Made by a program: the position numbers and the translations under genes. The notes below the pieces were generated by a model that saw only the letters and a list, made by a program, of their open reading frames with translations, searched no databases and was not told the DNA's origin. From Spirogloea muscicola (lineage: Eukaryota), in assembly GCA_009602725.1 (NCBI GenBank), contig WELB01000026.1, positions 669,481 to 689,480 of the forward strand: a stretch of 20,000 nucleotides of DNA, given 5' to 3'. The stretch's first letter is position 1. Each line of letters begins with the position of its first letter. This document shows, one piece after another, positions 5,292 through 20,000 of the stretch.

Positions 5292-7789
5292 ATGGCTCTG
5301 GCAGCCGCCCTTGCGGCAGCCGCTCGGCAGCTCAGACGATCCACTGCTGCCGTCTCGAGGCCGTCCCTCTGGAGCTCCATTGACGGCGCCCCTTGTGGAA
5401 GCCCCGTCCAGCGACTCTCCACCGCTGCTTCTGTGCACACGCCGCCAGGTGAGACTACTGCCGCAGCGACATCCGGGCGCGTGTCTCAGGCAAGCTGGGT
5501 CAGCGATGCTTCCTGCGGCCTCCGCTGGCCCTTGCGGCGGGCGGGAGCACGGTGAGCACTATGAGGGGTCCAGCTTAGAGCTTCACAGATGGCCGCCGAG
5601 CCTGGCCGAGCTGCTCGACGACCAACATCAGCAGCAAGAGGCACTGCGGAGCAGGTTGACGGGTCCGTCTGTGGAGTTACGTCAGCATGGGTTGAGGGTG
5701 TAGCGTGAGCTACTTACGTGTTGTGGATGACAGAGCGCCCACCACAGACAAATGAGCTGAGGCGACAGCGAGCCTGTGCCTTGTGTCGTCCCCTTGTTCA
5801 GCCCCCACCTGTGCTACTTTAGTTCACAGCTTATGACAGGCAAAATTGCGCTTGTAACCCACAGAAACACTGGTGGGTGCGGTACCAGGCGCAGAGAGGC
5901 GGCCTCCTGGGTGGTCCATCCTTGTGCTGCTCCTGCCCCCTGCTGCTGCGTTCGGCCTTGGCACGTGGCAGCTTAAGCGGCGGCAGCAGAAGGTCTTGCC
6001 TCTCCTGAACCTCAACGACCTCAGTCCATTAGAGCTCTGCTTTGTGACAGCCGTCTACTCGATTGTTCTTGTATGCCACTCTGGAAATTTCAGCCAACGT
6101 AGTGCAGAGGTTGTGCTTATGTATGTAGTTGCTCCACAAAGTAAAGTGTGCAAAGGATCAAAAGCCGACATGCGGTGTTGGCTTGAGCAGCTTCGTTGGT
6201 CCAGTGCAAGGACTGCTCTTGCACTGAAGCTCCCGCTTTGCAGCAGTTTTTTTCCAAAAAGCTGCACGCAATCTGCTAGTGGAAGTCCAATATGATGCCT
6301 TCTTGATCCTAAAGCTGCAGTCAGAGATGTGCATTGCTTGAGCAGGTGGACCTTCTCCAGCAACGTGAGCAGCGGCTACAAGAGGAGCCAGTGCCCCTGA
6401 CTCTGGAGCTGAAGCTTGCTGCCAGCAGCAGCCAGCACGTGGGAGCCAGCCCATTTGAGTATCGGAGGGTGGTCTGCGAGGGCATGCTCGACGAGGCACG
6501 ATCACTGTTTGTCGGGCCACGGGGGCGCAGCGTCGGCGGCATCACCGAGAAGGGCTACTATCTCATCACGCCGGTCATCCCCGCCGCTGAAAACGGCCTG
6601 TGGTAGAAGCTCCAGGTCCTCAGCTCGCTTGCGGCGTGCAGCATCAAAGACTTCCGCAGTGCCGCCTAGACTTAAGCTCTGCAGGTCGATGTTGGTATGT
6701 GAACGATGGGGATGACTTTAGGGATTAGTTTGATGTGTAACCCAACAGCCATGACCACTGTTTTCAATGGCGGTGCAGCTCGCGGCCACCGGTCCTCGTC
6801 AACAGGGGCTGGGTGACTGAGGCATGGAGGAGGGAGCATGACCACAACCAGGGCGTCGATCAAGATGCGGCCGTGCCGGGGCGCACCTTGACGGCCAGTC
6901 CATCGGGCTCTGTCTCTGTTGTTAAAGGCGATAATGGGCACCAAAGGAGCTGGTGGCACTTCTGGAGCAGCGGACATGAAGCTACAAGCGCTGCGGTGGA
7001 GGTGTGTGCCCACTGTAGCAGCAAAGCCGGTGGCAGGCATTGACAGCCCGCTGCACACGGAGAAACCACTGCGAAAGAAGTTTTGTGGTAACACGACAAT
7101 GGGTTGTGCTGGCTGGGCAGGGCACGGCACCGCCACCTGTGACGAGGATCTGTGGCATTGTACGCTCGAGCGAGCAGCCGAGCGCCTTTGTGCCGGCAAA
7201 TGTGCCGACCGCCGGGCAGTGGTTCTATTTGGACGTACCTGCCATGGCAGCCGCCTGCGGCCTGCCACCGGGCACGCTACTAGTGGACGCAATCAGAGAT
7301 GGTGGCGCCTTGGAGGCGACGTTGCAAGGGTCGCCGATTCCCAAGGACCCATCGGAGCTCGTTCGGCAGTCTGTGATGCCACAGGACCATCTCAACTATA
7401 CTCTCACCTGGTAGGACAACGGCGGTGCATCACATAATAGAGTCGTCAAAGCTTGCTTATATGTAAGCCGTGGCCCGCCTCAGTGAATTCAGGAAGTGAT
7501 TTGAGCGTGGCCTCTCCATCTCACACTACCTGCCTTCCTTTACTTAATCGCTAGCACAGTGGTTGTAGTTGGACACTGCTTGGAGTTGGACTGGTATTGC
7601 ATAGGATGTCGAATCCAAGACCCTTTACGCATGGGCCATGGTTCAGCCGTATCTGAGAAAGTCATGTGTATGAGCCTTTCCTTGAGAATGCACAGGTACA
7701 CTCTCTCAGCAGCCACGGCCTACATTGCATATCGGCGGCTACATATGGTGCGGGCGCCCATGATGACCAAGGGAAAGCGACAGCAATGA
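5292..7789 (+). CDS. SURF1: SURF1/Shy1 cytochrome c oxidase assembly protein, 6 exons, ~382 aa
   Basis: Exons 5292-5448, 5865-5992, 6346-6602, 6779-7001, 7121-7410, 7696-7789; all GT-AG and phase-consistent (1149 nt). Ala/Arg/Ser-rich transit-peptide-like N-terminus; FGLGTWQLKRRQQK; EYRRVVCEG...FVGPRGRS...GYYLITP; VLVNRGWV; FVPANVP...WFYLDVPAMA; HLNYTLTWYTLSAAT. Confidence 0.95.
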
Positions 7790-9157: not shown

Positions 9158-9221
9158 AGAAGAAGTGGCTCTCCCAATGGGGGCAAGGGCTGTGAGAAGC
9201 CAGCCCGAAAAGAATTGACAA
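9158..9221 (+). repeat. 64-bp dispersed repeat, identical to 19812-19875, flanked by an 8-bp direct repeat (TTTGCAGA)
   Basis: agaagaagtggctctcccaatgggggcaagggctgtgagaagccagcccgaaaagaattgacaa occurs at both loci. TTTGCAGA lies at 9153-9160 and 9223-9230. Confidence 0.9.
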
Positions 9222-9458
9222 ATTTGCAGAGGCTGCAGCGGTAGAGCTGATGTCAATTTGTGGCTTTCACGAGGTGTCATATGCACTGCGCGAGGGTACC
9301 ATCCTTCGAGGTCTTCTGTGTTTCAGAGCTTTCCGGCTTCCAGGAGCCTAGCTTCTCTGACCTGAGGCTGCTTAGCAGGGGTTACTGAGTAACACGTAGC
9401 TGCTTTGTTTCTTGTTGTGCTTGCTTTTCTTAGCGCTTCCCCTAGCCCCCTTCCTTTG

Positions 9459-9612
9459 CCAGCCCCTCTTCTCTATGGGCGAGCACTTTCTTGCTTGCTT
9501 TTCCAGCCCATATCCCCAAATGGGCGAGCCCTTTCTTTCCGGCTTCGGACCTTGTCCGTTCTTTCGTGCTGGCTTCTTCAGCCCTCGCCCCCGTTGGATG
9601 AGCTTACTTCCC
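9459..9612 (-). repeat. Diverged reverse-orientation copies of the same repeat family
   Basis: 9552-9610 (ttgtccgttctttcgtgctggcttcttcagccctcgcccccgttggatgagc...) aligns with the reverse complement of the 64-mer. 9459-9494 and 9503-9540 repeat its cagccc...tgggcgagc.ctttctt half. Confidence 0.65.
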
Positions 9613-9766: not shown

Positions 9767-12172
9767 ATGGCGGCGGCGGGCGGCGGCGACGGCCGCGGCG
9801 GCGCGGAGGCGTGGCTGCGGGGCCGGCTGCTGGCGCTGGCGGAGGCCGGTGGCGGCGGCGGGCTGGACACCGACATGGCCGGCAGCCTGGCGGCCTACTG
9901 CGCCGCCGCCACGCCCGAGCAGGCCGCCGAGTACCTCCTGGTGAGCTCCCCCAACCGCTCCACTTCCCTCGCCGCGGTGCCACCGGGCGGAATCGAACCC
10001 TGGTGCTCAGATTCCAAAAGTCGAGTCCAAGCACAAGCGACCGCAGCTGCGTCGCCTGTAGTCGTGGATGGTCTCTTCCAGTTCACATTCCTGCCACCTG
10101 AGATCGATTCTCTGAACCCAACTTACCTCGTGGCAAATCTTGACCTCGGAAGCACTGGCGGCACTGCTGGGCCCCCCGCAGAACATCGTTGGGGACAGCG
10201 ACGCGACGCGGGCGATCACCGCCGAGTACGCCGCCAATTGGGCGCCGGCGTCTGCGCCCAGTGGCGGCGCCAGTGGCGGCGGCAACGGCAGCAGGATGCG
10301 TGCGTACGTCAAGCCCCGTGAGGAGGGCGACTACATGGTCGCAGGGCGCAAGGCTCGGGACAGCTCCAGCGGCACTGGCGTCAAGGCGACGGTGCCGCCG
10401 CTGGTGATAGCCGGCGCTGGCGCAGCTAGCGGCAGCGCGAAGAAGACCCGCAGAGGCCGCGCTGTAGAGCTGGCGGAGCTGGGCGCCGGCCGCGCGCTGC
10501 TGCCGCGCCACGGCCCCTGCGAGTGCCAGGCATCGCGACACCGCCTGGTCGCCAATTGCCTCTCCTGCGGCCGTATAGTGTGTGAGCAGGTCGAGCTCCA
10601 CCCCCCCATCTCCTCTTGGCGTCAACCAGGACGGTCTGACGCCAGAAGGAAACCTAAACCCTAAGCCCTAAACCCCTAACCCCTAAAAGCCAAACCCAAA
10701 ACCTTTGAGCCTGACTTTGATCCATACTGGGAGTAATGCAGAGCTCCACCGAAATGAAGCATGCTATCTGATTGTCTTTACGGCAGGAGGGCGAGGGCCC
10801 CTGCGAAACGTGTGGCGCGCTGGTGCTGCGTGATGGCAGTAGCTATGCTGGGTTGGATGAGCAGGCGCTCCTGCCCCCGGAGCTTGCAAATGAGGCAGAG
10901 GCCAAGGCAGTTGCCTTCAAGGTCGGGCTCTGTTGAGAAGTTGAGCGGCTCTCAGATAACATGAACGCATTGACATGTCTGTGAGGTTGATTACCATCTT
11001 CAAGTTGCAGCATGTCCACATCGATCACCCAGCACGCAGTGGATGTGGTTTGTAGCTTAATGGTTATATGGACCTGAAGTGGATGCCTTTGATACTATAT
11101 GGAGATAAATGGACACTTCTAGCGCAAAGCTTAAAATAGCAGCTCCAGATCTCATCTTAACGAGGATTTTGTGGCTTGTGGTCTACAGGATCGCCTAGTG
11201 GAGTATGACCGGACTGCGGCAAGGAGGACTGAAGTCATTGACGACCAGAGTGACTATTTCCAGATTGACAGCAACGCCTGGCTAAGTGAGGAGGTAAGGC
11301 AGCCCGACTCTCCAGCATGCTGCATCTCACAAGGGCTCCAGTAGAGGTTTGGATGTCACTGCCATACTTGGCTGGCAATTTGATTAAGTAGCCACAGCCT
11401 GGCCTCAAGCCTTTTGCAATCACCCTTGTATCACGAGTGCAGGAGAAGCTGCAGCTCCAGAAGCGCCAGGAAGACATGGAGCGCACTACGGAGGAGCGCA
11501 AGAAGCGCGTTGTTGTTACATTTGATCTCCTCGGACGGAAGGTGCTGTTTCCATGCTCAACAGAGCAGTGTGTGCATAGGCTCCATCTTCAGAGTCTAGC
11601 ACCGCGTATCTGTGATGGCGTGTCTCCCCTGCTTGTGGAAAGGCCTTTGGCTGTAGCGAGTCAGGGGTTGCAAGTTTCACCATTGAGGTGTACAATGAAG
11701 ATCTTGTAAATGCTACACTTCTTCTGGCATTGACATGGACTTGACATTACTGCAGTATTTGCATGATCAGCAAGAAGTGAGAAATATGGCTTCTGCTCTG
11801 CATGCGTGCCAGGTTGTGATGGCGGAATCTGAGCAACTGGGCGACGTAGCAGAAGAGGCGGCCCTGCTCAGCACAAGCACATCCAGCGGCGCCACTCAGG
11901 ATCTCAGCATGCGAGTGAAGCCGAGCTCAAGCCTCTGCATTCCACCTCCCATTTTCGTAGACGTGAAAGCTTTGGGCAAGTCTCATATACAGACCACCAA
12001 GGCTGAAGGTGCGGTCAAGAGCAGCGGTGCTGCTTCAGGGGTTGGGCGGGGCCCATCAAAAGCATCGTGGATGCGGGTTCAGCACGATGACCCCTTTGTG
12101 GAAGCAGTGGGTGTGATTTCACAGGAGGCCAGCCTTAGCAAAGTAGCAGGTGCTACTGCAGCCGAGGCATGA
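9767..12172 (+). CDS. TRIP4: Activating signal cointegrator 1 / RQT4 homologue with zf-C2HC5 zinc finger, 6 exons, ~426 aa
   Basis: Exons 9767-9940, 10182-10589, 10787-10921, 11189-11293, 11443-11541, 11813-12172; all phase-0 GT-AG (1281 nt). CECQASRHRLVANCLSCGRIVCEQ|EGEGPCETCG, DRLVEYDRTAARRTEVIDDQSDYF, VVVTFDLLGRKV, RVQHDD. No ASCH domain seen. Confidence 0.92.
10650..10703. repeat. Degenerate plant-type telomere-like (CCCTAAA)n tract in TRIP4 intron 2
   Basis: aaacctaaaccctaagccctaaacccctaacccctaaaagccaaacccaaaacc; includes an exact AAACCCTA telo-box. Confidence 0.75.
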
Positions 12173-13602: not shown

Positions 13603-14737
13603 CTATTCCCATTAGGATTCGGGATCGACTACTATGCAGAATCTGCATGGAATAGATCAGAATGGCGTCAATTCGGAATACGCATAGCGATGCTTCCTCT
13701 GTTGAAGGGAAAAAGGCATAGTGGTATACCAGCTTGCAGCAGCATTGTCATTGACACTTTTCCCAAAGGTAGGAAATATTCGGAAGCTGATGGGGATTGC
13801 TCTGCTCTGATATATACAGACATATATACAGACCGGGGAGAACCAGATGGCTTCTATCGAGGCCGAGGAGGCACCAGTACGGGAGATAACACACTCCGCA
13901 TGCCCATCCTCCAGCAAGAGGAGCCTGGCAGTTTCAGGCGTGGTGGACAACCACGTACCACCAAGAACAGCACGACTTATCCAGCCGATACCTTCTGCAG
14001 GGCTCTCCAATGTGGCTTTGGAGGAGATGGAGGTGGATCGGAGTATTGATTTTATCAAGGCTTCCGGGCTGTGTTTTCCCTTGGTCGCCCACATGCGTGC
14101 AGAAGACGCCTGGTTGGCGCAGACGCTTGCAACGAAGACGCCACCTCTTGCATCGAATGCAGGCCATGAGGATGTGGAGTCAATCGGTACTTTCTACAAT
14201 GGTATCATTCCTTGGACGGTGCCTGATGAGGGTATCGTTTTGGTTGAAGTGTTCGGGGGTACTGCCAATGGGTTTCGAGCCGCTATGTCCAGCCACATCA
14301 AAGTAGCTCGTTATGTCTACATTGACAATGACTCAGCAGCCAGGGGTTTAGCCCAATAGGTGTAGGTAGAGGCTTCAATTGACCTAGAGACGGCTTTATT
14401 CAAGCCCTTCATGAAGTTTCTGCATGCAGTATAAGCGCGGCAGACAAAGAACCTTGGCTATATTGTGGAGAACGTGGAGCCACGGAAGAATCATCTGAAG
14501 GCGCGATTCGACTGCAACTCCGTTTGTGATGTACTCGGGCCTTACACCGTTTTGGACGCCGCTTATCTGGGTTCTTTGACAGATCGACGCCGTGTCCATT
14601 GGACCAACCTTGCCCCGGCGAAGATGCTGCAGGCATGCATCAACCGACAACGTCGCCCTTCCAAACCTGTACGCCTATATGGCTTTTGGACCCAGGTCGC
14701 GGTGTTGCGCCTGTGGACTACAACCGTCGACTTTTTC
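13603..14737 (+). mobile_element. Retrotransposon pol fragment: protease C-terminus, linker, C5 DNA methyltransferase (decayed)
   Basis: 13603-14131 is a close inverted copy of 15876-16394 (GIDYYAESAW...MLPLLKGKR...AEDAW.AQTLA), with a 12-bp duplication atatatacagac. ORF 13847-14359 continues in frame into methyltransferase motif I. Confidence 0.88.
14243..14737 (+). pseudogene. DNMT3-like C5-cytosine DNA methyltransferase domain remnant encoded in retrotransposon pol
   Basis: Motif I-like VEVFGG (14243-14260); motif II-like IKVARYVYIDND; motif V-like D.ETALF; motif VI ENV (14468-14476); motifs VII/VIII LDAAYLGSLTDRRRVHWTNL (to ~14611). Catalytic motif IV (PC) is absent, consistent with a deletion near 14357-14380. 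Stops TAG 14357-14359 and TAA 14432-14434; truncated by an LTR at 14738. Confidence 0.85.
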
Positions 14738-15340
14738 CAGTAAAGCTTGTGCAAGCAACTAGATGTCAACAAATACTCAATGCAGGTGTGAGATCGATCG
14801 TGTAGTCCGATATTGATTGATAGTCACCCGGTCGGTAACCAATTTGATAGTAACTCGAGCCAGAACGGGGGCCTAGCCCAGCCTATTTGGTAAGGGGGGC
14901 CAAGCCCAGGCCTATCTACTTCGGACAGGCTCCAAGCCTTGATGTAGACGGGGGTCCAAACAAGATGCAATCTGCACTCTTGCAAGGAACAAAGATGCTG
15001 GATATATGCAACACCTCAGAGCAACGCAAGGTTACGCTTGTCAGACGTTCAACAACACACGAGGTCACAATCTTTGTGTCTTACCACGTGTGTCCGGTCT
15101 TACGCGCCGGTGACAGAAGTCTTCTCCGCTAAGTCTCTCCCTCTGGCTTTTGCCGTTGTCCCCGCCGCTGTTGCCGCTGCTGTTGCCGTCGCTGCTGCTG
15201 TTACTGCCGCCGCTGCCGCCGTTGCTGCTGCTGCTGCCGTCACTGTCGTCGCCACCTCCGCTGTTACAACAACGAGCGTAGCGTGCGCGTTCAGTGTCAC
15301 GCCAAGAGGGCGTGGCACAGGTGTCCGCATAATAGAGAGC
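14738..15340 (-). repeat. Rearranged 3' LTR remnant (U5-like part colinear, R-like part inverted)
   Basis: 14738-15119 is a direct match to 18608-18989; 15117-15340 matches the reverse complement of 19005-19238. Confidence 0.85.
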
Positions 15341-15875
15341 ATCTTCAAGGAGGTTTTCTTTGAAGGTGTTCTATATGAAGCCTCTAGAACTGATTATTAT
15401 GTCTTAATCCTAACGCTATCGAGGGCCAGAACGTAGATTAGGTCTTCTGACCCTTTGCGTACCAGGGTTCAAGAAGCGACTGTCTTGACCCCTAGAGGTT
15501 TACATAAGATAGTTATTCGGAGTCGAATAGATTCCAATCCATATCTTCTTCATCGAGAAGACCATTAGAGGAGTCCAAATGCTCTATCAATTTCTCGATT
15601 ATAAGGCCTGCCATGCCTAGATGCTTGTATTCAGGTGTAGGGGTTTCTAAACTAGATCTGTTTTCATTTAATAGATGGATAGATCTAGCCATTAAGTGAG
15701 CTTGGAAATTTACTCGAATTCTTCCGAAGAGTGCGGATAAAGCAGGATCCTTGATATCCGGATACCCAGAACCCTGCCATTCATAGAACCCTTGAACAGT
15801 AATTGGATACTGTAAAGAGGGTTCTTCTTTTTGTGGGACGAGCGGGAAATCCTCCTGCTCTATCCTTCCAGACGC

Positions 15876-16394
15876 TGCAAGCGTCTGCGCCGACCAGGCG
15901 TCTTCTGCACGCATGTGGGCGACCAAGGGAAAACACAGCCTGGAAGCCTTAATCAAATCAGAATTCCGATCCACCTCCGTCTCCTCCAAAGCCACATTGG
16001 AGAGCCCTGCAGAAGGTATCGGCTGGATAAGTCGTGCTGTTCTTGGTGATACAGGGTTGTCCACCACGCCTGAAACTGCCAGGCTCCTATTGCTGGAGGA
16101 TGGGCATGCGGAGTGTGTTATCTCTCGTACTGGTGCCTCATCGGCCTCGATAGAAGCCATCTGGTTCTCCCCTTTGTCTGTATATACCAGAGCAGAGCAA
16201 ACCCCATCAGCTTCCGAATATTTCCTACCTTTGGGAAAAGTATCAATGACAATGCCGCTGCAAGCTGGTATACCACTATTCCTTTTTCCCTTCAACAGAG
16301 GAAGCATCGCTTTGCGTATTCCGGATTGACGCCATTCTGGTCTATACCATGCAGATTCTGCATAGTAGTCGATCCCGGATCCTAATGGGATTAG
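15876..16394 (-). repeat. Post-protease linker, inverted copy of 13603-14131
   Basis: ORF 15513..16535(-) shares MLPLLKGKR.SGIPACS.IVIDTFPKGRKYSEADG and MASIEA.EAPVREITHSACPSSS...AQTLA with ORFs 13690(+) and 13847(+). Confidence 0.9.
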
Positions 16395-16698
16395 GATCTC
16401 AGTTCCCAACAAGACATCATAAGTATCAGCCCTCGTGATGAGACACCGCGGTGAACGAGGTGCATACTTCAGAATCATCAGCATGCAACTTGATACACAA
16501 TGGTTTTTTAGTGACACCCACGACAGTGTCTGCACCGCCGGTTGCTATCCTGATCTTCAAGGTACTAGCACTGATGTCGTCCTTCCCCAGACGGAGTTTC
16601 TTGGCAAAAAGTTGGCTAATAAGGATAGGTTGTGCACCTGTATCAAGTAGCACCAAGGCAGGGGTTGCTACATTGGTATCTGTAGCCAACTTCACCAC
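16330..16698 (-). pseudogene. Retropepsin-type aspartic protease (frameshifted)
   Basis: ALVLLDTGAQPILIS (DTG at 16644-16636) and flap-like IRIATGG; after a frameshift, YDVLLGTEIL. In-frame TGA upstream at 16699-16701. Confidence 0.9.
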
Positions 16699-17089
16699 TC
16701 ACTTGGTATTGTCAAGCATGGCCACCGCGGCGATGATCTCTGTACGCTCAGTCGGAGATCTGCAAGGTTTGATTTCAGGAGCTGACAGAGTCAGAGGGTA
16801 AATTGCGACCATGACAGGTGAGTGCTGTACCACCTGTGATGCGACAACATTTTCAACTTCTCTGGTTGTCAGAAGCATGTCATGCAAAGTCTCCTTAGAT
16901 ACACCAATATCATTCAAGCTGAGAACCGGTGCCTCAAGCATTCTGGTAAGCAGTACTTTAGTAGGCACTGGAAATTTAACAAGCATATCTGCACTGGTAG
17001 CAACCTTCGGAGTCGAGCTACGAACGGGTACAACAATATCACCAGTATCCTTGACTCTGAAACTGGCTGGGTATCGAGCCGTTCCACAA

Positions 17090-18534
17090 GGTGCTTGCTG
17101 AGTAGTTCTATCTCTCCCCTCCTCAGGGGATTGTGAGATGAAGAACCCTGTACGTCTGCAGCTTGAGGGACAAGGTTGGCAACAAGAGCATACCCCTCAT
17201 AGTTGCCCATCTCCTCTTCCTCATCGACGTAGATTTTCTGAGGATTGTATTCCTCGTCTTCTGGGTAATCACCTGCTTCAGGCATGGCAGTAGAAACGAC
17301 TTCAGTCTTGCTATGCTGTTTAGCCAAAGCAAGCTGCTTAGTAAATTCCGCTACCTGCCTCGCCATCTGTTCATATCTGGAGTCAGGTCTATCAGTCGAG
17401 GTTCTGGCAGACAACCCCCTCCCAATAGCACTTTTATTTCTCAAAGCTACAGGCCTCTTATCAGGGAACTTTCCCCAACACTGCTGTTCTAAATGCCCAG
17501 ATTTGGAGCAAAATGAGCATATGGCACCAGATTTCTGATGCCTCTGGGTACAATCTTTCTTAGTGTGCCCTTGCTTACCACATCCATGACACTCTACGAC
17601 TGTCCTAGTCACAGACACGTCTGCTGAACGTGTAGCGACTGGATAGGCTACAAAAGCCTATCCAGTTTTCATACCTCGTGCCTTGTCCGGTGACGAAGCA
17701 GTCGGTTCATAGCAGATGTGCCTTGAGAACCTGCAAAATGTTCATCGGCACATTGTAATTTAAAGTCGTCAGTCTCCTTGTCAAGCATGACTCGGAAGAC
17801 GTCTTCTATGTCGTAGTCCTTCTTGTTAAGATACTGCCGACGCATCATCAGAAGTCCCTGTACTTGACGCAACCCCTTTCCTGCGACAACGCGCAAGAAC
17901 TGATATGCAAGGTCCTTCTGACTTATCTGTGTGTGAGACTGTTCAATCACTTTTAGAAACCGGTAATAACAAACAGTCACAGACTCGTCTTGCGAGCAAT
18001 TCGCATCAATGCCTGCTGGTGAATAATAGTGTCCTCAGGGAAGTGGTGAGCAAGACGATTAAACATCTTGCGTACGGGATCCGTCAGAAGCTGAGGACCT
18101 AGCTGCCTTTCTGCTTCAGATGCATTACTATATACCGGTGTGATCATCTGCAAGATAGTGTCACGCAAACGTCTATAGACATCGCTAGCTTCATGACTGA
18201 GATAACGACTCAGTAAAAGCATAGCATCCTCGCGGCTTATCAGACACTTCTGCATGCGCAGCTCACATATCTCTGCCTCGTAGTGTTCCTCCACTGTTCT
18301 TAGTGAAGAACCACCAGGCGTACCTCTGTACTGTGGACGATCTCCTTGAGACATGATGCGAAGCGGCTGTGGTGTCACCTCTGCTTTTCCTGGAACAGGT
18401 TCAACCGCCGCAGAAACAATGTCCGGAATATCAGCAGCAACTTCAGATATTTCCGCTACGCTATCAATTACTGTAGAAGCAATATCCGGAGTATCAGTCG
18501 GAGTTGCTACTTTACGGCCGGACCTTGAGTCCAT
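17090..18534 (-). pseudogene. Retrotransposon gag with two CX2CX4HX4C zinc knuckles (disrupted)
   Basis: ATG at 18534; consecutive ORF pieces 17977-18534, 17669-17980 and 16914-17618. CHGCGKQGHTKKDC and CSFCSKSGHLEQQC at 17478-17591. The lower boundary is approximate. Confidence 0.88.
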
Positions 18535-18593
18535 ACACTGAATACAAATGAAAATCCAATTGCCGAGAGAATGCAAGAAGTCTTCTTGGCAAG

Positions 18594-18607
18594 AAGTCTT
18601 CTCGGCT
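18594..18607 (-). other. Putative self-priming primer-binding site (AGCCGAGAAGACTT)
   Basis: Directly abuts the LTR end on the element's sense strand, lacks the TGG start of tRNA PBSs, and is the exact reverse complement of the sense-strand sequence at 19238-19225. Confidence 0.65.
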
Positions 18608-19378
18608 CAGTAAAGCTTGTGCAAGCAACTAGATGTTCAACAAATATTCAATGCAGGAGTGAGATCGATCGTGAGTCCAACATAAATAGTCACCCGGTCC
18701 GTAACCAATTTGATAGTAACTCGAGCCAGAACGGGGGCCTAGCCCAGCCTATCTACTTGGTAACGGGGGCCAAGCTCAGGCCTATCTACTCCGGACAGGC
18801 TCCAAGCCTTGATATAGACGGGGGTTCAAACAAGATGCATTTTGCACTCTTGCAAGGAACAAAGATGCTGGATATATGCAACACCTCAGAGCAACGCAAG
18901 GTTATGCTTGTCAGTCGCTCAACAACACACAAGGTCACAATCTTTGTGTCTTACCACGTGTGTCCGGTCTTACGCGCCGGTGACGGAAGCTTCTCGGGGG
19001 TACGGCTCTCTAGCGGCTATTACGCGGACACCTGTGCCACGCCCTCTTGGCGTGACACTGAACGCGCGCGCTACGCTCGTTGTTGTAACAGCGGCGGTGG
19101 CGGCGACAGTGACGGCGGCAGCAGCAGCAACGGCGGCAGCGGCGGCAATAACAGCAGCAGCGACGGCAACAGCAGCGGCAGCGGCGGCGGGGACAGCGGC
19201 AAAAGCCAGAGGGAGAGAGAGACCAGCCGAGAAGACTTGTCCCGGCATCGGTCCTCCGCACCCTTATGCTTGGTCAGGAGAAATACATTGCCTAATGGGG
19301 TGAGCTATTCAGCTAATCTGACCCCCCAGGCCTCAAGGTCAGTGTGACCTGAGACGCACTCCTTTGATTGACCTACCA
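18608..19378 (-). repeat. 5' LTR (U3-R-U5), outer boundary uncertain
   Basis: Contains both segments repeated at 14738-15340, a GCN-rich low-complexity tract (~19090-19200) and a TATA-like box. Sequence beyond 19238 has no second copy in the window. Confidence 0.7.
19263..19268 (-). promoter_or_regulatory. TATA-like box (CATAAG) of the LTR promoter
   Basis: Lies 25-30 nt upstream of the inferred transcript start at 19238; non-canonical first base. Confidence 0.35.
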
Positions 19379-19597
19379 TTTCCCACTACTGTCTAGCTAG
19401 CCGCTTACCTATGGCTTGTCTCAGTCCTTAGCACTCCGACTCCTTCAGATCTTGTCCATTCTTTTGGGCTGGCCTCTCCCAGCCACCAGTTAATCTGGCC
19501 GCACTTGCTTCTTGTCGAGAGGTAAATCGCACCTTCCAACGCGCTTTCTCGGGCTTCCTCGGTCTATGATTGAGGGCCTCTCTGTGCTAAACCTGTG

Positions 19598-19700
19598 CGC
19601 CCGCGTCAGGCGGAACGTGTGCAACGATTGGGTGGTACGCCCCGCGTCAAGCGGAAAGTGTGCAACGATTGGGTGGTACGCCCCGCGTTCGGCGGGAAAT
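19598..19700. repeat. 41-bp tandem repeat, ~2.5 copies
   Basis: cgccccgcgtcaagcggaaagtgtgcaacgattgggtggta units start at 19598, 19638 and 19679 (partial). Confidence 0.9.
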
Positions 19701-19811
19701 GGGCGGCAAATGAACTCGAAACGCCAAGTGGTAACTCTGGCGACAACTTAGCACCACTGCTGACCAAAAGCGAGTGGGAGGTCCCCGCGCTCGCGTCTTC
19801 TCTTGACACTA

Positions 19812-19875
19812 AGAAGAAGTGGCTCTCCCAATGGGGGCAAGGGCTGTGAGAAGCCAGCCCGAAAAGAATTGACAA
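19812..19875 (+). repeat. 64-bp repeat identical to 9158-9221
   Basis: Exact match by direct comparison. Confidence 0.9.
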
Positions 19876-20000
19876 GGTTCGAAGGGGCCAAACTACGAGC
19901 TAAGCAGCGACTGCGGGGCCTGAAGAGGCTATGGCAGAACGGGGGAGGATGGACCACTTAGTAGTTACGAGTGAGGAGCCTCACATCCGACAGACTAGCT

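Follow-up and report, generated by a model that had tools for sequence, protein, structure and literature searches.

Reverse transcription of the Tf1 retrotransposon is primed by the first 11 bases of its own RNA, freed after RNase H cleavage (PMC7175516), and self-priming has been proposed for Tj1 on sequence grounds, the same kind of evidence as is used below (PMC4600332). The associated "pretzel" structure consists of three duplexes, with two helices flanking the primer site, and fission-yeast Tf1/sushi LTRs always end in CA (bioRxiv 2022.12.06.519325). About half of the Tf1 cDNA retains a single-stranded primer-site tail (PMC11042837). In the accessible text of the survey by Neumann et al., self-priming is predicted in 12% of the plant LTR elements surveyed, with values of 83% for Tcn1 and 89% for TAR (203 TAR elements); the in-silico criterion requires that a site 0–5 nt past the LTR end have its complement, over 10 nt or more, within the 5' LTR (PMC6317226). 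The same text describes the algal chromovirus clade Chlamyvir as using tRNAs, and half-tRNA-primed elements (Osser, Bryco, Bianca) as carrying a site complementary to the anticodon arm of a host tRNA (PMC6317226). For SM-Tcn1, the accessible text reports that neither priming mode was found (PMC2864245).

The closest described family to the element presented here is KnitGypsy-Dnmt3 from Klebsormidium nitens (de Mendoza et al. 2018, PMC5890265), which combines DIRS-like repeats (A-coding-B-A-B) with Gypsy domains, and whose methylase shares an ORF with RT and RNase H. The searchable part of that publication does not discuss priming: "primer" occurs once in the main text, in the context of PCR, and "PBS" in none of three supplements, a set apart from the main supplement (PMC5890265). 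Background on DIRS elements is also provided by PMC6681497. Among titles and abstract openings, drawn mostly from outside the subscription literature, no report on priming in methylase-carrying elements was found. Here we analyze a 20,000-nt stretch of DNA (the window) from Spirogloea muscicola, a species placed among the algal sisters of land plants.

Results

A decayed retroelement at an intron-rich host locus

The window contains two ordinary host genes, a SURF1-family gene (5858–7414) and a TRIP4/ASC-1-family gene (10116–12172). The host genes are intron-rich, and the TRIP4 exons are 82–91% identical to a Spirogloea muscicola gene model; telomere-like CCCTAAA-type units are located at 10652–10677 inside a TRIP4 intron. 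The segment from 13603 to approximately 19400 is a rearranged cluster of one retroelement family. The 5' end of its LTR is adjoined by a very high-copy repeat family (about 19417–20000 and 9158–9492), whose summed contig depth exceeds that of single-copy sequence by a factor of thousands; 9158–9221 and 19812–19875 share 64 identical nt, and a tandem pair of 41 nt is present within the repeat region at 19600–19681.

On the minus strand, the main copy of the element is ordered terminal repeat, 14-nt site, gag with zinc knuckles, aspartic protease, and linker (Table 1). Both gag and the protease are broken, and all of their Pfam scores fall below cut-off, including those of the protease region with gag-asp_proteas (E 0.0022), Asp_protease_2 (E 0.0036), and RVP_2 (E 0.0073). 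The gene model P0005 of Spirogloea muscicola has the same gag-protease-methylase-like order and is 38–47% identical to the element in all three parts, with 47% identity between gag and the P0005 N-terminus and 38–46% over the protease region. P0005 was the sole protein relative found: the methylase-region query returned one match among 661 candidates and the linker protein query none among 1208. No RT, RNase H, integrase, or recombinase was detected in the window, where both pol fragments stop before any RT. The element is a decayed gag-protease-methylase-like retroelement, of which the window shows the 5' end.

Table 1. Features of the retroelement cluster, with positions in the window
Feature	Position	Strand	Basis or score
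5' terminal repeat, LTR-like, about 784 bp	18608..19391	-	3' end TACTG firm; 5' start CAGTA candidate
TATA-like box CATAAG, 30–25 nt upstream of predicted start	19263..19268	-	sequence; promoter function predicted
Predicted self-primer, first 14 nt of predicted transcript	19225..19238	-	exact complement of 18607–18594
Internal partial complement of self-primer, 8 exact pairs, 11 with one bulge	18987..18997	-	duplex -14.4 kcal/mol
Predicted primer-binding site, directly after LTR end, no TGG start	18594..18607	-	sequence
Tandem second copy of primer site, 16-nt period, 12/14 identical	18578..18591	-	2 mismatches
Downstream stretch predicted to fold back on primer site, hiding it	18562..18571	-	-14.3 kcal/mol
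Broken gag, frameshifts and stops, CCHC zinc knuckles	16914..18534	-	zf-CCHC E 0.01, below cut-off
Broken aspartic protease region, LLDTGA	16248..16913	-	Pfam, below cut-off
Inverted piece of second LTR copy, matches 19238 to about 19005	15117..15345	+	sequence comparison
3' part of second LTR copy, matches 18986–18608	14738..15116	-	7% divergence
Inverted second pol fragment: protease end, linker, broken C5-methyltransferase-like region	13603..14737	+	sequence comparison
C5-methyltransferase-like region	about 14192–14650	+	three stops; about 40 residues missing relative to P0005

The second pol fragment is 93% identical to 16394–15873 across 532 nt. Paired copies of the linker, the 5' part of the LTR, and the 3' part of the LTR (13603–16394) differ by 6–7% each, which fits a common age for the inverted pieces, perhaps as products of a single fold-back event. 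Part of the 3' repeat is inverted, and the point where this repeat meets the internal region sits on a single-copy contig.

The methylase-like region exhibits 40% identity to residues 609–780 of P0005 (E 1e-35) and carries FGG, ENV, and RxR-like motifs, a pattern that we take to be Dnmt3-like. Searches of the region against Pfam, NCBIfam, PDB, and fold collections returned no match, and the AlphaFold model had a pLDDT of 32, which renders its Foldseek result meaningless. The region is likely a methylase remnant, possibly of the Dnmt3 type, judging from the motifs, the homologous gene model, and the analogy to KnitGypsy-Dnmt3. The description of the family as DNMT-bearing in a first-pass annotation of this DNA therefore stands as far as the motifs and the gene model go, but draws nothing from the domain, structure, and fold searches.

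An open frame of 215 codons (15513–16160, minus strand), whose ATG lies just behind a CAG acceptor-like site (16178/16177), crosses position 15873, where the main copy ceases to match its sister. The frame has no Pfam match, and neither it nor P0005 has a usable match in the ESM Atlas. An X5 contig, RNA at a guess, is identical over 15640–16177, stops at the acceptor-like site, and has 355 letters unplaced; the frame is possibly a spliced transposon-derived transcript. An RNA-like contig joining the leader (19238–18885) to the acceptor at 16177 was rejected, its depth at 18914–18941 being 9.8 as compared with 32.6 for the contig. Two GTAAGA splice-donor-like sites are located inside the LTR leader on the minus strand, at 18973 and 18954, and an X5 contig identical over 18957–19178 ends 2 nt before the second of these.

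Ends of the terminal repeat

For the 3' boundary of the LTR at 18608, the second repeat copy gives an independent fix by ending on the equivalent base (14738). At the other end, CAGTA at 19391 is the only 5-nt inverted match to the LTR 3' end in 20000–19239, and the summed depth of contigs drops over 19385–19414, from 2840 to 1051. Position 19391 is nevertheless a candidate start only, because chance would be expected to give about 0.7 such matches, one diverged contig aligns 18 nt further, to 19409, and a search around the repeat found no target-site duplication. The LTR does not have TG...CA ends; TG is located at the 3' end in both copies. A long GCC/GCT-rich run in the leader is kept in both LTR copies (19085–19205 and 15150–15265). 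Long plus-strand frames at 18529–19347 and 18818–19303 were rejected as genes and taken as by-products of this repeat, as the GCC/GCT-rich run is what keeps them open.

A 14-nt complement between the primer site and the LTR

Read on the minus strand, the last letters of the repeat are ...CAAGCTTTACTG, up to 18608, and AGCCGAGAAGACTT (18607–18594) comes next without a gap. No TGG is present in 18625–18585, which excludes an intact tRNA as primer. The exact complement of the 14-mer is located inside the LTR, with 617 nt separating the two arms and pairing extending on neither side. CATAAG is the only TATA-like match of the scanned pattern in 19420–19238. These results bear out three statements of the first-pass annotation: that the 14-mer is flush behind the LTR end (offset 0) and does not begin with TGG, that 19238–19225 pairs exactly with 18607–18594, and that a CATAAG box (19268–19263) lies 25–30 nt upstream of the complement.

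That this arrangement is a chance coincidence is very improbable. When the LTR was shuffled with preservation of dinucleotides, only 1 of 20,000 shuffles generated a complement of at least 14 nt within 0–5 nt of the LTR end, although that single shuffle did reach 16 nt, and at none of 35,642 other window positions did a complement exceed 12 nt.

The RNA 5' end is predicted to lie at or next to 19238, because CATAAG is at -30, the start would be a pyrimidine/purine step, and the inversion joint of the second LTR copy falls on that base. The predicted self-primer has C at -1 and A at +1, followed by a TC-rich run. A pyrimidine/purine start with a TC-rich run is a plant promoter pattern.

Predicted folding of the leader RNA

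The duplex between the 5' end and the primer site is the strongest local one (-23.6 kcal/mol), followed by those of the self-primer with the tandem site (-17.3) and the internal site (-14.4), and by that of the primer site with the downstream stretch (-14.3). When the RNA was folded from 19238 to 18590 or 18560, the 14-bp duplex had a mean pair probability of 0.96. When the RNA was folded to 18533 or 18450, the duplex probability was 0.0, and forcing the duplex cost 9 and 23 kcal/mol, respectively. In the longer folds the internal site captures the 5' end, and the primer site pairs onto 18571–18562, a fold-back that is part of the MFE structure once the RNA extends to 18533 or beyond. Loss of the duplex in these folding models may reflect a switch, the decayed state of this copy, or the limits of folding that allows no pseudoknots. 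Helices on either side of the primer site, as in the pretzel, were sought by duplex scans in this decayed copy, with no positive control, and all four queries performed no better than shuffles, of which 113, 123, 110, and 38 of 200 each were as stable.

The second LTR copy

The second LTR copy consists of antisense 19005–19238 joined to sense 18986–18608. Its inverted piece begins at the first base of the self-primer, within which there is one mismatch. Its 3' part shares the TACTG end of the main copy, and no primer site follows. The joint coincides with the internal partial complement of the self-primer. This is the structure that would be expected from a minus-strand strong-stop cDNA that snapped back upon itself. 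If the cDNA extended to nt 1, its template must have escaped cleavage, which strict cis-cleavage as in Tf1 would not allow; this reading would thus require priming in trans or a template jump. An ordinary 3' LTR that underwent DNA inversion and a deletion would have an identical map. Plain DNA inversion also explains the joint, which lies on one of only three eight-base inverted repeats in the LTR, and another copy switches strand elsewhere (18800/19065).

Other copies of the primer site

One DNA run aligned to 18545–19415 provided 281 contigs and 91 variant rows. Neither 14-mer varies among the 40 best-supported of the 91 rows, which do contain variants at flanking positions 19219 and 19242. 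Since the 40 rows cover about 5% of sites, the 28 unvaried positions are not significant, and because only the best 40 of 91 rows enter this comparison it demonstrates only the absence of a common variant. The sole self-primer variant found is that of the second LTR copy, which has no primer site for comparison. A diverged contig lacking about 300 nt of U5 (joint 18614–18918) keeps 23 nt at 18592–18614, spanning the LTR end and the primer site, with at least 80% likeness. By a rough measure, the summed depth at the primer site is 888, as compared with about 150 for single-copy contigs.

Searches for DNA of relatives in viral contigs, metagenome contigs, and prokaryote genomes found no loci. 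Five metagenome loci with an 18-nt junction pattern were rejected as chance matches; all five lacked a protein match and a tRNA, and at none of them was the upstream complement longer than 7 nt.

Discussion

Proposed self-priming and its alternatives

We consider it probable that the RNA of this element, rather than a tRNA, primed its own reverse transcription, because the primer site pairs exactly with 14 bases inside the element's own terminal repeat. By the published in-silico criterion described above, the locus is a self-priming candidate (14 nt exact, offset 0). In the proposed pathway, transcription directed by the CATAAG box would start at the C/A step 19239/19238, and the RNA 5' end would fold back about 630 nt so that nt 1–14 anneal to 18607–18594. 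A 3'-OH would be freed after about nt 14, by the element RNase H if the reaction is Tf1-like, or the primer would be supplied in trans by a second packaged RNA. Minus-strand DNA synthesis would then begin at 18608. To generate the second LTR copy, strong-stop cDNA spanning 18608 to 19238 would snap back on the internal 11-nt site and extend to its own 5' end. With regard to the self-primed reverse transcription proposed by the first-pass annotation, the criterion and the exclusion of an intact tRNA speak for it, and the start site and the mechanism are read from the DNA.

The complement could instead act at a later step, as in DIRS-type elements, where a region like their internal complementary region (ICR) would help single-stranded cDNA to restore or join its ends, possibly with a tyrosine recombinase. 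Repeat ends that are not TG...CA and a target-site duplication that was not found would suit such a role, as would the figure legend that describes a DIRS arrangement of the repeats in the closest known family (PMC5890265) and the requirement of DIRS-1 for its internal complementary region after first-strand synthesis (PMC7192593). However, the ICR of DIRS-1 spans 88 bp and corresponds to the outer extremities of the two repeats (PMC7192593), whereas the site here measures 14 nt, pairs with a stretch about 150 nt into the repeat and 30 nt below the TATA-like box, and is itself flush behind the 5' repeat, the usual primer position. Together with the lack of a recombinase in the window, this makes a DIRS-type role unlikely. 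An origin of the complement as a scar of template switching or local duplication, with no replication role, is unlikely as well. The locus has undergone several inversions, its primer site is tandemly duplicated, and related copies have many deletions and one further strand switch. The summed depth nonetheless indicates, by its rough measure, that the site is not private to the locus, and the diverged copy keeps the site while the neighboring U5 is lost; moreover, the site is located exactly where a primer site is required, and no other primer site is present.

A quite unlikely explanation is that the primer was a host RNA other than an intact tRNA, such as a half-tRNA or small RNA fragment, and that the LTR 14-mer is a captured copy or a structural decoy. 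We count in favor of a host RNA the 9-nt core of the 14-mer motif, which we take to resemble the U2 snRNA 5' end. Half-tRNA priming is also known in the algal and moss copia lineages Osser and Bryco, but within the accessible text of the survey it is exclusive to Ty1/copia (PMC6317226), whereas the closest known kin of the element here have a Gypsy-like order. The perfect 14-nt partner is present in cis, and no tRNA or snRNA family matched 18400–20000; three weak Rfam matches were far below gathering scores.

Relationship to described elements

Like the self-primed Ty3/gypsy chromoviruses of the Tf1/sushi group (Tf1/Tf2, Tj1, Tosmo1-3, and the plant Tcn1), the element has its primer site directly behind the 5' LTR with no complementarity to a tRNA end, and it differs from tRNA-primed LTR elements in having no TGG-led site 0–5 nt behind the LTR. 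As in Tf1/sushi elements, the complement of the primer site is found in the LTR, downstream of a TATA-like box (PMC7175516, PMC4600332, bioRxiv 2022.12.06.519325). The differences from Tf1/sushi are a complement of 14 nt instead of 11, an LTR ending in TG instead of CA, the loop of about 630 nt, the methylase-like domain, and flanking pretzel helices that do not rise above chance; RT, integrase, and chromodomain are not in view. The element thus likely works like Tf1, yet we do not file it as Tf1/sushi because the CA end is missing, the pretzel is not above shuffles, and there is no RT for placement. The label "Tf1-type" from the first-pass annotation accordingly overstates the likeness: it fits the primer-site position and the LTR complement, but the LTR ends in TG, and pretzel duplexes were not seen above shuffles.

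KnitGypsy-Dnmt3 resembles the element in belonging to a streptophyte alga and in its unusual repeat structure, and it is also Gypsy-like with an intronless C5-methyltransferase-like region in pol (PMC5890265). The likeness is by description only: methylase identity is at the level of motifs in a broken copy, and the fragments here end before the RT with which the KnitGypsy-Dnmt3 methylase shares its ORF. The TAR elements (Houba, Osr-1) are predicted to self-prime by the same criterion, but they are Ty1/copia elements of land plants for which the survey table reports no methylase (PMC6317226). DIRS-1 and the split-direct-repeat tyrosine-recombinase elements share non-canonical repeat ends, internal self-complementarity, and methylase cargo, as far as the accessible descriptions extend. 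The DIRS-1 ICR is long and pairs with both extremities, unlike the short site in primer position here, where an aspartic protease is present and no recombinase was seen.

A more far-reaching reading, which we regard as doubtful, is that the element represents a separate lineage of retroelements with a methylase, living in the algae that are sister to land plants, and that self-priming evolved in this lineage apart from Tf1/sushi, with mirror-image CA...TG ends, no pretzel, and a two-state leader. Under such a scheme the RNA 5' end and the primer site would each be hidden by a decoy until a partner swap starts reverse transcription, and the snapped-back copy of the LTR would preserve, as a fossil strong-stop cDNA, a record of the RNA start and the first DNA base.

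Implications

Self-priming is a mechanism already known and common by prediction; the novelty lies in connecting it with an algal element that carries a methylase and has unusual ends. If the self-priming reading is true, the TG end beside the primer site would imply integration or end processing unlike that of Tf1. It would also provide the first priming mechanism for retrotransposons bearing their own cytosine methylase, and would extend self-priming to the streptophyte algae.
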